The notes beneath the pieces were generated by a model. The model saw only the letters and a program-made list of their open reading frames with translations, was not told the DNA's origin and searched no databases. Of a stretch of DNA of 64,000 nt, positions 28,094 through 42,568 are shown piece by piece. Position numbers and translations under genes: made by a program. The DNA lies in sequence record PZ179883.1, one strand, 5' to 3'. This stretch comes from a phage. Every line of letters begins with the position of its first letter. Position 1 is the first letter of the stretch.

Positions 28094-28311
28094 GTAACCT
28101 TTAAGCAGTATTCTTCTACATGCTGTTTACGACCTTTCTTATCAATAAAGGTATATTCAACGAATGTTCCAATGTAGTCTTTATCTACATCATGCGGACT
28201 ATTAATTGGACATTTAGTACGGCAAATGCGTTCCCATTGACGAATAATTACTGCCTTATTCTTTGGGTCATATGGATGTGGATAATGTATATTCATAATA
28301 ACGGTTCCCAA
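28084..28311 (-). CDS. hypothetical protein (75 aa)
   Basis: Track ORF. Confidence 0.4.
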   Translation of the reverse strand: MGTVIMNIHYPHPYDPKNKAVIIRQWERICRTKCPINSPHDVDKDYIGTFVEYTFIDKKGRKQHVEEYCLKVTWL

Positions 28312-28760
28312 TCAACAATCACAATTTCTAATTTAGAGGAATATGTATCTAAAATCCCCTCAATAATATCCCAGTTCCCTTTACCTATGCCTGCACCAAT
28401 CCTAGGCATATAGATTGTAGGTTTAATCAGTTTATTTTCACCAAACTCATTTAATTCTAACATACAATTCATTAAAGCGGAATACTCAAAATTTGGCCCT
28501 GGTTGAAATTGAGTATAAAGGTTGAAGCAATACGCTTTATGAGTCCTAAAGTATTTTTCATAGACTGAGTAAGAACCGAGTTTAGTTACATCACCCCATT
28601 CAGTCTGTAATTTATCAGCTTCCAAAATTTTAGGGAAAGCTTTGGTTAATTGACCCGCTACGCCTGAACCCATAGTATGAAAACAATTGCATCCATGCGC
28701 AATATTTTTACCTTCAGCGAAAAGGGCGACAATATCGCCCTTGATATATTTTACAATCAT
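28293..28760 (-). CDS. macro-domain-like protein (155 aa)
   Basis: GDIV...IAHGCNC...MGSGVAG resembles the macro domain GDIT/VNAAN/GGGV phosphate-binding loops. Confidence 0.5.
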   Translation of the reverse strand: MIVKYIKGDIVALFAEGKNIAHGCNCFHTMGSGVAGQLTKAFPKILEADKLQTEWGDVTKLGSYSVYEKYFRTHKAYCFNLYTQFQPGPNFEYSALMNCMLELNEFGENKLIKPTIYMPRIGAGIGKGNWDIIEGILDTYSSKLEIVIVDWEPLL

Positions 28761-29104
28761 CTAGTACTCAATCCTCGATTATAAGAATCTACCAAACGGT
28801 CAACCATTGAATGACAAGCGGCTTTATCTTTCTCCTCCGCAACTGAACATTCTAAGGTATTCCACTTTTTAGCATATCGTTTTAATAATGTATCGTTTTT
28901 GTATCTGCTTGATTTATCTCTTTCTCCGTCTTTATATGCATATATTAATTTCTGCGCAAATTCAGCTTGGCATGCTTTATTTTTCCCACAATAATCTGCC
29001 GCAGTGCGATTTACATATTCTCTAATTTCAGTATATGATGTATCTGCTGACGCAGAAGCAGAAAATGAAATTAATCCTATACATAAAACCAAAATTTTAG
29101 TCAT
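28757..29104 (-). CDS. secreted cysteine-containing small protein (115 aa)
   Basis: Signal peptide MTKILVLCIGLISFSASASA; size and position match T4 vs, unverified. Confidence 0.45.
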   Translation of the reverse strand: MTKILVLCIGLISFSASASADTSYTEIREYVNRTAADYCGKNKACQAEFAQKLIYAYKDGERDKSSRYKNDTLLKRYAKKWNTLECSVAEEKDKAACHSMVDRLVDSYNRGLSTR

Positions 29105-29642
29105 TTACTATTTCCAAAAGTTTATTATTTTTAAGGTAATTAGCCTTTTCTAGGACTTCAGAAGCATATTTAGAACCAGCTTTAACATTCCATCCCGAAT
29201 TATAAGAGGATATTGCTTTTCTTATATCGCCCTTATGTATATTTAACCAATAAGAAAGTTCAATGTACGCCCAGGAAGCTGAATTGGATCGTTTATTCAA
29301 CATTCTTTTTATTTCAGCATCGGTCATATTATAACCAAGTTCCTTAACTCTTGCTCGCATAGTAGGCAAATAATTTTGGAACATTCCATAAGCGTGATGC
29401 TTTGGTTTAGATTTTAAATTAACTCCGCCAGAGCTTTCTTGCCATAAAATAGCAGCCATTATATGACCTAATCCGCTCTTGTGGATATTTTTGTGTGTTT
29501 TATATTTTCCATCCTTAGAAAATTGTTCCCCGAATTGATACGCGTAACGCATGTTATCGAGTTGGACATTACTGAAAGTATGCTCGGAGCTATGTGCCAT
29601 CATTGAAATGGCCAATAGACCAGCGAGTAGTGCTTTTCTCAT
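29097..29642 (-). CDS. secreted SLT-domain (lytic transglycosylase-like) protein
   Basis: Signal peptide MRKALLAGLLAISMMAHS; ILWQESSGG motif resembling the GH23/SLT catalytic QES motif. Confidence 0.5.
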   Translation of the reverse strand: MRKALLAGLLAISMMAHSSEHTFSNVQLDNMRYAYQFGEQFSKDGKYKTHKNIHKSGLGHIMAAILWQESSGGVNLKSKPKHHAYGMFQNYLPTMRARVKELGYNMTDAEIKRMLNKRSNSASWAYIELSYWLNIHKGDIRKAISSYNSGWNVKAGSKYASEVLEKANYLKNNKLLEIVND

Positions 29643-29649
29643 GCTTACC

Positions 29650-30111
29650 TCATTGAGTTTTAATTACTGCTTTAGAAGCCTTTCCTGGTAAACGACGACT
29701 GTTGATAATTGCCATCCTACATTGAAGTGACGGGTCTTTGAACTTCGCGTTAGGTTTACAAACTGTAAATCCAAGCCAAAGATTTCCATCTGTGATTTCT
29801 AAACGTCCAGGACGATATTCAACCCCATCAATAAAATCCTCGTCAATGTCAGGACGCGGAGGCATACTCAGGAATTCATTAACTTCTAAAACATGGTCTT
29901 TTATTTTATGGAATAATTCAAAAACATATGTCTCATCAATCTCCCGTTGAATTGCACGATCAAGAAGATGCTGAGAATATTTTAGATGAAACGATGAGAC
30001 CCCTGCTGCTTTTGATGCCTCACGAATCTCATTGTTAATTTGACGAAACTCCGACTCAAAGTGACGACGAAGCTTATTTCGACGGATAAAAACTTCTGTA
30101 TTGATAGTCAT
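29650..30111 (-). CDS. regB: endoribonuclease RegB
   Basis: 153 aa, same length and position as T4 regB; early promoter immediately upstream. Confidence 0.65.
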   Translation of the reverse strand: MTINTEVFIRRNKLRRHFESEFRQINNEIREASKAAGVSSFHLKYSQHLLDRAIQREIDETYVFELFHKIKDHVLEVNEFLSMPPRPDIDEDFIDGVEYRPGRLEITDGNLWLGFTVCKPNAKFKDPSLQCRMAIINSRRLPGKASKAVIKTQ

Positions 30112-30138
30112 GTTATTCTCCTCTTAACTGATAGAAAA

Positions 30139-30168
30139 ATTATACCACAGTCAAGAGGAAAAGTAAAC
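30139..30168 (-). promoter_or_regulatory. early promoter upstream of regB (GTTTAC, 18 nt, TGGTATAAT)
   Basis: GTTTAC 30163-30168, TATAAT 30139-30144; 28 nt before regB ATG. Confidence 0.65.
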
Positions 30169-30170
30169 AG

Positions 30171-30491
30171 TTATTCTTTAAATCTAATCAATTTATTCAT
30201 AGACTTTGAAACTTCTGCACGAACCTCATGTAGATTTTTGAGCTGTTCAAGACGCTGCTCATAGTAAGCAATTTCATCTTCTTCGAGACAGTCCTGTGAA
30301 TCTTCTTTAAGATAACGTGCATAGTCCTGGAAAGCGTTACGAACTACTTCCTGGAAGTCATCAAGACTTTGAATTTTCTTAGGAGCAACAGATACACGAC
30401 GAGGGGCAGTATAATACTCATAACCAAACCCTGCGCTTAATTGAGCCATTAGTATTTTTCCTCTGGTTGGAACACTGCGCGACAAGCCCAC
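30171..30491 (-). CDS. hypothetical protein (106 aa)
   Basis: Track ORF. Confidence 0.45.
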
Positions 30492-30715
30492 ATACTGGCT
30501 TCTTTGAGTTTCATTTTAGCAATAGTTAACTGATCGAGGCTTTCGGCGTAATTCTTCGCGAGTTCATCATCTTCACAGCTATCAAATGCTTCCCAGAATT
30601 CATCATATAAAGCATCAAAGATAAGCCCTAAACGAACTTCAGCATCTTTGATAGCATTCACTTTACTGATTTTATCGTCAGTATGTGGTTTATAACCTTT
30701 AATGTCTTCAATCAT
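30449..30715 (-). CDS. small acidic protein (88 aa); candidate Acb2-type nucleotide sponge by synteny only
   Basis: Second ORF after regB, the position of T4 vs.4; no sequence confirmation. Confidence 0.3.
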
Positions 30716-30929
30716 ATTTTACTTCCTCACCTGTTCCCAAATCATATTCAACTAAACGAATAGGTTCATGAATGCCATATCCTTGAACAGAAATTTCTGT
30801 CGTAGGATAAATTCCATTAATATCACCCATGTTCCACGCTTCATTAAATTGCTGTTCGCCTGAATTACTAAACCACTCGGCGAAAGCATTTAGCACATCT
30901 TCAGAACCTTCAATAATTATCTTTGCCAT
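30708..30929 (-). CDS. hypothetical protein (73 aa)
   Basis: Track ORF. Confidence 0.4.
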   Translation of the reverse strand: MAKIIIEGSEDVLNAFAEWFSNSGEQQFNEAWNMGDINGIYPTTEISVQGYGIHEPIRLVEYDLGTGEEVKYD

Positions 30930-31303
30930 TACAAACTCTCAGTAAAGGTACGAGCGATAACGTCGCGCTGCTGTTCCGGAGTCAGAGAGTTAAAGCGAAC
31001 TGCATAACCGGATACACGGATGGTCAGCTGCGGATATTTTTCCGGATGCTTAACTGCATCTTCCAGAGTTTCGCGACGCAGAACGTTAACGTTCAGGTGT
31101 TGACCACCTTCAATTTTAACTGTAGGTTGTGTTTCAATTTCAATTTCACGGGCATGCAAACCATAGAAAATTTCTGGGTCTACAAAAGAGTCCTCTTTAA
31201 AAGTTTTAGAGACAATAATTCGTGCTTGAATACCATCTTCAAAATAAATAGTACCTTTATGCGTGCCTTCAAGAATTTGATATGCTTTCATATAACCTCT
31301 CAA
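30929..31303 (-). CDS. autonomous glycyl radical cofactor (GrcA/YfiD-like)
   Basis: C-terminal [25 protein letters not shown], the glycyl-radical loop of PFL/GrcA; a T4 YfiD homologue is known. Confidence 0.75.
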
Positions 31304-31629
31304 TTAGAAAATAAATTTATCCAAGATTGCTCTTTAATTAAAAATGGCTCAGAATCATATGCCATTAAACTTTGGGTGATTAGTCCTTTAAAAGGTCCAT
31401 CAATAAATTCCATGGCAAAATATGGAATTTTATTCATTAATCTTGCATTAGGAGCAGTGCACAAAACTCTGCATCCTTTGAATACGCCTTTTTGTAATTT
31501 GTATTGCTTAGGATAAAATTCGCTCAAGGCGTTGTTATTTGCCAAAATTTCAAAATGATTCACCAATTTATTTTTAATAGTTTTTGGCGAAAAATAAAGA
31601 TATTCGAAAAGTTGCGTGTCTGTCATCAT
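31300..31629 (-). CDS. hypothetical protein (about 109 aa from internal ATG)
   Basis: Track ORF 31300-31680 trimmed to Met18 to remove overlap with upstream gene. Confidence 0.4.
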
Positions 31630-32213
31630 TGCATTCCGATTATGAAAAACTGTGGACGAGTAATACCACCAATGCAGCATTTACTATTGCAACAGTGGTG
31701 CACAGTTTCAATATGAATATCGTAAATTTTATCCATATCAGGAGATTTAACAGGCTCATCGATTATATACAAAATCCGCGAAAGCGATAAACCTCTGAAC
31801 TTGCTTCCTTTATTACCGATAAAACTACGGATAGAATCGGTAAATAAGCGGAATCGAATATCATCGCTAGAATAACGAGAAAACTCTTTTTTAATGTGGC
31901 CCGCAGAAATTTTAGCGTAAGCTGAAGTATTAGAAAGAACAATAACTGTTCCACCATCATACAGCCAATTAGCAGCGAAGTTAGTCACAGCAGTTGATTT
32001 ACCAGATTGACGCCCACCATCTAGTCGAAGTGTACAATACTGTTTAAGTAAGTCTTCAAATGGCGGGATATATTCGTTTTTACAAATTTCTTCTACTCTA
32101 GCATCAGAATGGTGTGTAAAAGCATTCATCAGGGATAGATAAGGACCAGTTAAAAATGTTCTCATTTTATTCTCTCTAAATTTGGGCCATTCCATGGCGC
32201 ATGAATTGTCCAT
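31626..32213 (-). CDS. P-loop NTPase-like protein (195 aa)
   Basis: Walker A GGRQSGKST, Walker B-like LYIIDEP; start codon choice uncertain. Confidence 0.5.
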   Translation of the reverse strand: MDNSCAMEWPKFRENKMRTFLTGPYLSLMNAFTHHSDARVEEICKNEYIPPFEDLLKQYCTLRLDGGRQSGKSTAVTNFAANWLYDGGTVIVLSNTSAYAKISAGHIKKEFSRYSSDDIRFRLFTDSIRSFIGNKGSKFRGLSLSRILYIIDEPVKSPDMDKIYDIHIETVHHCCNSKCCIGGITRPQFFIIGMQ

Positions 32214-32310
32214 TTCTGTATTTACCCATTACCGCACTTGGGCTCGACCTTATTACAGGTTGGCGGGAATCCCTCACAGAATCATGAGGTCCAGGTTATT
32301 CCCATGTTAT

Positions 32311-32727
32311 TTAAATGTAAATATTTTTGCCGTAATACTTATACCAGTGTGGCTTCATTAAAATTTTTTCATCGAGTCGTTGTTGACTCAACTTAATAGC
32401 TGATTTGCATGGATTATAATCATTTTTCCATTCTACTGGAATATCGCTGATGTCAGGAACTTCAGTATCTTTTATACTGAACCCGCGTTTTAAGCATTCC
32501 GTTATAATGTCCGATTGACGCTTTCGCAAAAATTCTAACTTATCGTAAAAGAAAGTAACATGACCAGAACCTAAAATAAATTTAGAAGATATTTTAAAAT
32601 CTTTAACGCGCTTACCATTTGCCACATGTTTACGAACTATACCAAAAACACGTGGCAATTCACGATACTCAGCCATAAGATGTTGGTCGGTCAGTTCAGA
32701 AACAAGTGTTAAATTGATACGAGTCAT
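32311..32727 (-). CDS. denV: endonuclease V (pyrimidine dimer DNA glycosylase)
   Basis: From ATG 32725-32727 with GGAGGA RBS: [29 protein letters not shown]..., 138 aa, matches recalled T4 DenV. Confidence 0.9.
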
Positions 32728-32754
32728 AATTTCCTCCAAGTAGTTGATGAATGT

Positions 32755-32784
32755 ATAGTATCAAAGTCCTTGGAGGAAGTAAAC
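32755..32784 (-). promoter_or_regulatory. early promoter upstream of denV
   Basis: GTTTAC 32779-32784, TACTAT 32755-32760; between ipII stop and denV start. Confidence 0.6.
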
Positions 32785-32785
32785 A

Positions 32786-33588
<803 letters not shown>

Positions 33589-37053: not shown

Positions 37054-37617
37054 TTATTTACCTAGTTTACTTATTATAGCTTCTGCAGCAGCTTTTAGCT
37101 TAGATGCAGTGTTAATACGATTTTTAATTTCAGTATACGCATCGCCAAGAACATCAAGGCTATCAGAATAAACACTTACACTATTGCGTTCGCTATTTGA
37201 AATAGAACCTTTAGTTTTGCGGTCAAAATCGGTGTACACGTCTTGAAGATCGCGGGCTGCCTTCTTTGCATCATCCAATGCATCAAGAGCTTTATTCAAA
37301 GCATTAACGTATTTTTTAGTGTCGAACATATTCTTAGAAATTTTAACAGGTGCGCGTTCAGGAGTAGCTAACACAGATTTAGGAACCTGAGCGCCAGATG
37401 CCAATTTCTTAGAAATTTTGAAAAATGCTTTATTGAATTTATTTTCTTGACTCATTGTAAAAGAACTATTATCGATGTTGTACATTTCAATAGCTTTAGC
37501 TTTCCACTTAAGAAAATCGCCGCGGTCTTTTGGGTCCAATTGGAAGAATACTTTAGTAAGATCTGCTTCAGATGGTAATTTTGCTGCTTCGGTTAAAAAT
37601 TCGGCATAGGTTTTCAT
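37054..37617 (-). CDS. internal-protein-like gene with capsid targeting sequence (187 aa)
   Basis: N-terminus MKTYAEFLTE; Ala/Lys-rich body; terminator hairpin after stop. Confidence 0.6.
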   Translation of the reverse strand: MKTYAEFLTEAAKLPSEADLTKVFFQLDPKDRGDFLKWKAKAIEMYNIDNSSFTMSQENKFNKAFFKISKKLASGAQVPKSVLATPERAPVKISKNMFDTKKYVNALNKALDALDDAKKAARDLQDVYTDFDRKTKGSISNSERNSVSVYSDSLDVLGDAYTEIKNRINTASKLKAAAEAIISKLGK

Positions 37618-37742: not shown

Positions 37743-38216
37743 TCATTTGATTTGTTTAGCAGACCAAATGCGGTCTTTAATAATTTTTTGGATGTCTTCA
37801 ACATACTCAAGAGAGTGAACATGTGGATTATCTTTGAAACTATAAGCACGGGCTAACTTTTGGCCTTCGGTTTTGATTACTAAAAGCTCTTTAAGGATAG
37901 CTTCATATTTAGCGATAATTCCTTTAACGATATTTTTTTCTTGTGCCGCTTTAGGATCTGCTTTAGGAGCAGGTTTACCCGAAGCCTTTGCAAAAGCAGC
38001 GCCAGTAGCAACTAAACTTTTCCAGGCCATACTAACTGCATTTCCCGTAAATCCTTCCGCTTTCATGTCGCGTGCAAACTGGAATCGCGATTCATCAGAA
38101 GCATCTTTATAGGAATATTTACCCGCGGCAATGGCAGCTTTTGCAACAGCTTGAATTTCGGTGCTAGATGCTTCATTTAACACCGCTTCATTTAAAAATT
38201 GAGTATATGATTTCAT
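37743..38216 (-). CDS. internal-protein-like gene with capsid targeting sequence (157 aa)
   Basis: ATG 38214-38216 with AGGAAA RBS gives MKSYTQFLNEAVLNEAS; track N-terminal extension overlaps the terminator. Confidence 0.6.
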   Translation of the reverse strand: MKSYTQFLNEAVLNEASSTEIQAVAKAAIAAGKYSYKDASDESRFQFARDMKAEGFTGNAVSMAWKSLVATGAAFAKASGKPAPKADPKAAQEKNIVKGIIAKYEAILKELLVIKTEGQKLARAYSFKDNPHVHSLEYVEDIQKIIKDRIWSAKQIK

Positions 38217-38253
38217 CTTATTTCCTGTTTTAATTTGTAGATTTAATATACTA

Positions 38254-38261
38254 ATATTTAT
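38254..38261 (-). promoter_or_regulatory. late promoter box TATAAATA upstream of internal-protein-like gene
   Basis: Minus-strand TATAAATA abutting terminator 38262-38291 and 38 nt upstream of ATG 38216. Confidence 0.5.
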
Positions 38262-38291
38262 ACCAAAAAGCCCCAACCTTTCGGTCGGGGC
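38262..38291 (-). terminator. intrinsic terminator, copy 2 of the 31-nt element
   Basis: Same hairpin plus U tract, at the downstream edge of the tRNA/small RNA region. Confidence 0.7.
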
Positions 38292-38342
38292 TAAGCCTTG
38301 CGGCAACCTTGTCGGGGTTCCACCTGCTAAGGCAAGTGTTTG

Positions 38343-38434
38343 TACGAAACGCCGGGATTCGAACCCGGTTATTAAGTAGTTGACGCTACTCAATATTTTT
38401 AAAAGGCCATATCTCGACCATATCCGAACGTTCC
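38343..38434 (-). ncRNA. tRNA-like small RNA candidate (perfect T-arm, 7 bp acceptor-like helix, non-canonical core)
   Basis: CCGGG-TTCGAAT-CCCGG T-arm at 38351-38367; 38344-38350 pairs with 38428-38434 (one G-U); no canonical anticodon arm; lies between CDS 38600-38950 and a terminator. Confidence 0.35.
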
Positions 38435-39046: not shown

Positions 39047-39128
39047 TGGGGTGACCGATGGGAGTCGAACCCATGACTACGAGAATCACAATCACAATCT
39101 CGAGTTCTACCAACTGAACTACGGCCAC
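39047..39128 (-). tRNA. tRNA-His-like (GTG) with 13-nt anticodon loop; possible pseudo-tRNA
   Basis: Acceptor, D-arm, T-arm and discriminator C resemble tRNA-His; anticodon stem CGAGA/TCTCG encloses TTGTGATTGTGAT. Confidence 0.55.

Positions 39129-41883: not shown

Positions 41884-42568
<685 letters not shown>

Follow-up and report, generated by a model that had tools for sequence, protein, structure and literature searches.

We analysed a stretch of 64,000 nucleotides of phage DNA (sequence record PZ179883.1; called the window here) around a small minus-strand open reading frame, for which an identity as an Acb2-type cyclic-nucleotide sponge had been guessed from synteny alone. The window is Tequatrovirus DNA, and phages such as DCP2, ECO07P4, slur07 and ZN18 carry DNA that is ~97–98% identical to it. 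The ORF runs exactly from an ATG to a TAA (Table 1) and encodes a protein of 10.2 kDa with a pI of 4.5 (20 D+E versus 12 K+R), which agrees with its earlier description as small and acidic. The gene overlaps both of its neighbours. The stop of the vs.5-like ORF and the start of acb2 share 8 nt (ATGATTGA), suggesting that translation of the two is coupled, and the putative Shine-Dalgarno sequence of acb2 lies within the 3' end of the vs.5-like ORF. On the other side, the acb2 stop and the vs.3 start overlap as TAATG. Such tight packing with both neighbours is typical of T4 early gene blocks.

Table 1. Features at the acb2 locus, and the presumed acb1 gene elsewhere in the window.
Feature	Coordinates	Strand	Remarks
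regB, endoribonuclease gene	29650..30111	-	99.3% identical to T4 RegB; synteny anchor of the original prediction
vs.3 ORF	30171..30449	-	92 aa; ATG at 30449; directly downstream of acb2
acb2 / vs.4 CDS	30449..30715	-	ATG start, 88 codons and TAA stop
Putative Shine-Dalgarno sequence, GAGGAAG	30722..30728	-	6 nt 5' of the acb2 ATG; read from the sequence, function presumed
vs.5-like ORF	30708..30929	-	73 aa; directly upstream of acb2
Gene 57B, presumably acb1, cyclic-oligonucleotide phosphodiesterase	41884..42342	-	152/152 aa identical to T4 57B

The region 29000..33500 was scanned for promoters and terminators, and the promoter-like sites were compared with those in shuffled sequences. Promoter-like sites in this region were not in excess of the shuffles (15 versus 15.2), and none was convincingly placed for acb2. 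Only one minus-strand site was good (30167..30139, TTTACT-17-TATAAT with TG), and it is placed upstream of regB. Because no gene-specific promoter was found, we infer the expression of acb2 from its operon context only: early promoters further upstream presumably drive the gene by read-through, along with vs.8 to vs.5.

In T4, the minus-strand gene order is denV, vs.8, vs.7, vs.6, vs.5, vs.4, vs.3, regB, vs.1, vs, tk.4. A tblastn search of the window with the T4 proteins recovered the same order on the same strand, with the ORF under study in the vs.4 slot. The original prediction had described it as the second ORF after regB. This is correct when positions are counted along the plus strand. 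All these genes lie on the minus strand, however, so with respect to transcription the ORF precedes regB, two ORFs upstream of it, exactly as vs.4 does in the T4 annotation. The vs.3 product was 98.9% identical to T4 Vs.3, and T4 vs.5 matched 42 residues of the vs.5-like ORF at 90%. Pfam and NCBIfam searches with the vs.5-like ORF found no family, and an NCBIfam scan of Acb2, Vs.3 and Vs.5 also found none, hence no model that names Acb2. Pfam matches to Tex_N and Toxin_19 on Vs.3, Vs.5, Vs.7 and Vs.8 were below threshold and were rejected as noise.

We compared the protein, as a single sequence, with all PDB chains by phmmer. The search returned one match, chain A of 7UQ2 ("Vs.4"), which aligned end to end with E = 6e-51. 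This comparison with T4 Vs.4/Acb2, which had been proposed as the check on the guess, found 80 of 88 residues identical over the full length (90.9%). In Pfam, residues 7–83 of the 88 matched PF24729, the Acb2/Tad1 hairpin (Acb2_Tad1_hairpin), with 66.1 bits, the curated cut-off being 27 bits. A search of PHROGs returned phrog_717 at 1e-30; it was by PHROG 717 that Jenson et al. defined the homologues of Vs.4 (PMC10097602). By tblastn, the acb2 product was matched in 1232 phage records.

A single-sequence AF2 model (pLDDT 86.5) predicted a two-helix hairpin, with helices at residues 11–45 and 50–81, in keeping with the family architecture of ~90 aa, a hairpin of two helices and a short arm at the N-terminus. 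When this model was compared with the PDB by Foldseek, the best match was 7UQ2, followed by 8H2X/8H2J, with a TM of ~0.72, and all other fold matches had E > 0.4. The structures 8H2J, 8H2X and 8IXZ are those of the founding Acb2, gp26 of the Pseudomonas phage PaMx33, which has the same hairpin fold as the window model but is only ~22–24% identical to the window protein. PaMx33 Acb2 was not retrieved from the PDB by single-sequence phmmer and was seen only with a profile: one built from 7 homologues (56–100% identity) matched 8H2J and 8IXZ with E = 5e-4 along almost the entire protein, and reached 8H2X as well. In the profile alignment, Y8 of the window protein corresponds to Y11, the stacking tyrosine of PaMx33 Acb2, and K23 corresponds to its pocket lysine K26.

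The pocket of T4 Vs.4 has been characterised in detail. The Kd of the protein for 3',3'-cGAMP is ~30 nM, and its hexamer accommodates 3 cGAMP in pockets between protomer pairs (PMC10097602); a second study gave a Kd of ~84 nM for T4-Acb2 (PMC10312549). Base stacking is provided by Y8 and F82, and polar contacts come from Y8, H11, K23 and R79 (PMC10097602). T4 Vs.4 prevents activation of the CapV phospholipase, and this inhibition is lost when Y8, F82 or one of the interface residues (L29, A66, A73 and A77) is mutated; the screen mutations T12I, S74N and A77I have the same effect (PMC10097602). Deletion of vs.4 has shown that the gene protects T4 from CBASS in vivo (PMC10097602; PMC12657218).

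All of the cGAMP-contact residues (Y8, H11, K23, R79 and F82) were present in the window protein. The hexamer-interface residues of T4 Vs.4 (L29, F33, A66, A73 and A77) were all unchanged, which is consistent with assembly of a similar hexamer, and T12, L60 and S74 were likewise conserved. Among 43 distinct homologues, drawn from GenBank phages and IMG/VR, each of the five contact residues was kept in 42 or 43. The eight substitutions that lead from T4 Vs.4 to the window protein are found at the beginning of helix 1 (E13D, E14D and G17S), around the hairpin loop (L44F, N46S, C50D and F52L) and in helix 2 (T68M). All eight positions vary across the family, and none has been published as a contact or interface residue. 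M68 was unique to the window allele among the 43 distinct homologues. Some effect of the eight substitutions on affinity or specificity is conceivable.

The guess from synteny was thus borne out by 7UQ2, PF24729, PHROG 717, the gene order and the residues. Very likely, then, the ORF represents vs.4/acb2 of a T4-like coliphage of the genus Tequatrovirus, an orthologue of T4 Vs.4 and a predicted dinucleotide sponge.

Which ligands would such a protein accept? The ligands of T4-Acb2 are cyclic dinucleotides; neither cA3 nor cAAG is bound. This restriction has been ascribed to an unkinked helix and to clashes from Y37, A57, L60, D61 and T64 (PMC10312549). PaMx33 Acb2 also takes cyclic trinucleotides, in a second pocket, through R67 and T74 and a kinked helix that makes this pocket larger (PMC10312549). 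All five clash residues were kept in the window protein, and the positions of PaMx33 R67 and T74 were occupied by D61 and M68. The window protein lacks the trinucleotide-pocket features of a broad-spectrum Acb2 (PaMx33/JBD67 type, which binds cA3 and cAAG). Because the five clash residues are kept and T68 is M, the window Acb2 is predicted to be a dinucleotide-only sponge that, like T4-Acb2, takes no cyclic trinucleotides.

Hexamer assembly, ligand binding and an anti-CBASS phenotype are carried over here from the T4 orthologue, by analogy with which the following mechanism can be proposed. The 10-kDa two-helix hairpin would assemble into a hexamer with three pockets, each formed between two protomers and holding one cyclic dinucleotide. 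Y8 and F82 would stack on the bases, and Y8, H11, K23 and R79 would contribute hydrogen bonds and salt bridges. We expect 3',3'-cGAMP and related CBASS signals as ligands, bound with nanomolar affinity and without cleavage. With the signal sequestered, CBASS effectors such as CapV would stay inactive and the phage would replicate. T4 Acb2 also binds 2',3'-c-di-AMP and thereby triggers Panoptes (PMC12657218). The same sponge activity would make the present phage detectable by this decoy-nucleotide system.

The closest characterised relative, T4 Vs.4 or T4-Acb2 (NP_049728; PDB 7UQ2; PMC10097602), has the same length of 88 aa and the same slot between vs.5 and vs.3, and its contact, interface and cA3-clash residues are all the same as those of the window protein. 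The two loci differ upstream of the gene: T4 has a 36-nt gap before vs.4, whereas the acb2 start of the window overlaps the upstream ORF. A protein that is 100% identical, with the same neighbours, is encoded by phage UTI-E2 (UMM76082.1; OL870316, Tequatrovirus gee4498), in whose record the product is named "hypothetical protein" and not Acb2. We also considered Tad1 (Thoeris anti-defence 1), a protein with the same Pfam hairpin domain that works, broadly, by the same sponge strategy. Tad1 is the larger protein and contains a further part that binds gcADPR. In contrast, the hairpin domain of the window protein (residues 7–83) accounts for the whole of its 88 aa; the extra gcADPR region that marks a Tad1 is missing. 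No Tad1 structure was retrieved with the window protein by sequence, profile or fold search of the PDB.

We estimated substitution rates between the window gene and its T4 counterpart. The dN/dS of 0.12 indicates that acb2 is under purifying selection, with no sign of positive selection, and adds to the exact reading frame and the database matches in confirming the predicted ORF as a real gene. The dS of acb2 was 0.37, while tk.4, vs, vs.1, regB, vs.3 and vs.6 (28293..31291) had values of 0.04–0.07, ~6-fold lower. The dS far above that of the flanks points to import by recombination: judging from these rates, the acb2 allele is probably a patch that a more distant lineage contributed to an otherwise T4-like block. 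A patch of this kind is normal mosaicism for T-even phages. Two relatives carry altered alleles. In T2 Vs.4 (NC_054931, 10591..10851), the N-terminus is replaced and G7-Y8 are missing; in the IMG/VR relative UViG_2974573174, the C-terminus is frameshifted and R79 and F82 are lost. Both are natural loss-type alleles of acb2 and fit the loss under pressure from Panoptes that PMC12657218 discusses. Together, the allelic mosaic and the loss alleles in relatives offer a small illustration of an ongoing arms race.

Does the divergent allele still do what T4 Vs.4 does? It could be a true Acb2 orthologue with a shifted ligand spectrum, the candidate changes being T68M and the clusters at 13–17 and 44–52; such a protein might bind the Panoptes decoy 2',3'-c-di-AMP more weakly, or have gained a signal such as 3'cADPR. 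An origin in a more distant lineage, as the dS values point to, would suit such a shift, and so would the unique M68. T68M lies in the helix that lines the trinucleotide-pocket region. Moreover, tuning of Acb2 specificity has been proposed as one escape from Panoptes (PMC12657218). However, every dinucleotide-contact residue is unchanged, and homologues with an intact pocket naturally have D, E, Q or T at position 68. Of the other changes, some are conservative, and the rest affect helix ends or the hairpin loop, which is the most variable region of the family, and the dN/dS bears no mark of positive selection. We regard a shifted spectrum as improbable. More improbable still is the special case in which the imported M68 allele is a tuned sponge that still neutralises the cGAMP of CBASS and has a reduced affinity for the Panoptes decoy 2',3'-c-di-AMP. 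If true, such an allele would be a natural solution to the dilemma of losing Acb2 or triggering Panoptes.

Alternatively, the gene may be an inactive or decaying copy kept as a passenger, like the altered alleles of T2 and of the metagenome. Natural loss alleles do exist, as T2 and UViG_2974573174 testify, and Panoptes selects for loss of acb2 (PMC12657218). Yet the ORF of the window is full length, its start, Shine-Dalgarno sequence and stop are intact and all functional residues are present; the low dN/dS and the identical protein in the independent isolate UTI-E2 also argue against decay, which we hold to be very unlikely. The chance that the ORF is spurious, or encodes some small helical protein with no relation to nucleotide sponges, is negligible. 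Two-helix hairpins do match katanin and designed helical bundles weakly by fold, but the E-value to Vs.4, the matches in 1232 phage records and a Pfam score well above threshold rule this reading out. Orthology to T4 Vs.4 is the preferred reading. The gene is a straightforward orthologue of a characterised anti-CBASS sponge, and an identical sequence is public.

Gene 57B of the same window, which we take to be acb1, is a functional companion of acb2 that is not physically linked to it. The T4 acb1 product is a phosphodiesterase that antagonises CBASS (PMC12657218). By sequence, then, the phage appears to carry both known T4 anti-CBASS genes, acb1 and acb2. The main value of these assignments is annotation, as the acb2 gene is labelled "hypothetical protein" in many Tequatrovirus genomes. 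Naming acb2 and acb1 predicts that the phage would resist CBASS systems that signal through cGAMP and would be vulnerable to Panoptes, a prediction that is useful for choosing or engineering therapeutic coliphages.

The neighbourhood of acb2 can also be followed beyond Tequatrovirus. The vs.6 gene, a GrcA-like glycyl-radical gene, adjoins acb2 in Slopekvirus and Pseudotevenvirus, as seen in Klebsiella phage KP15 (2133..2764) and phage UPEC03 (2133..2776). These loci with the vs.6-acb2 pair lack regB, vs.3 and vs.5; in the window (30449..31291), vs.6 and acb2 are separated by the small vs.5 only. The vs.6-vs.4 pairing is conserved over large distances.

Several other features of the surrounding DNA were recorded. 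On the regB side, vs.1 (29097..29642, minus strand), which carries an SLT lytic-transglycosylase domain, and tk.4 (28293..28760, minus strand), which encodes a Macro-domain protein, are each 100% identical to T4. The tk.2 of the window is only 54% identical to that of T4, and tblastn with the T4 proteins found no match to tk.1 in the window. On the denV side, the vs.8 homologue (31626..32213, minus strand) matches T4 Vs.8 from residue 26 onward only, at 88% identity. Further upstream, denV has only 70% DNA identity to T4. The spacer between denV and vs.8 is without the ~490-bp insertion of many close relatives, in whose records an internal virion protein (ipIV) is annotated there. Neither ipII nor ipIII occurs between denV and e in the window.

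Instead, there are three minus-strand ORFs (32786..33082, 37054..37617 and 37743..38393) that share the motif MK(T/S)Y..FL.E, which we take to resemble the N-terminus of T-even internal head proteins. One of them adjoins e; the other two are found in the interval from e.8 to the tRNA cluster, where they replace e.7, segB, rnaC and rnaD of T4. Finally, a tRNA-like gene (39047..39128, minus strand) scored 56.6 bits with the Rfam tRNA model, and ARAGORN assigned no anticodon to it. Its anticodon region reads GATTGTGATTGTGATTC, and the gene looks like a tRNA-His (GTG) whose loop is enlarged by a tandem 6-nt duplication of ATTGTG.
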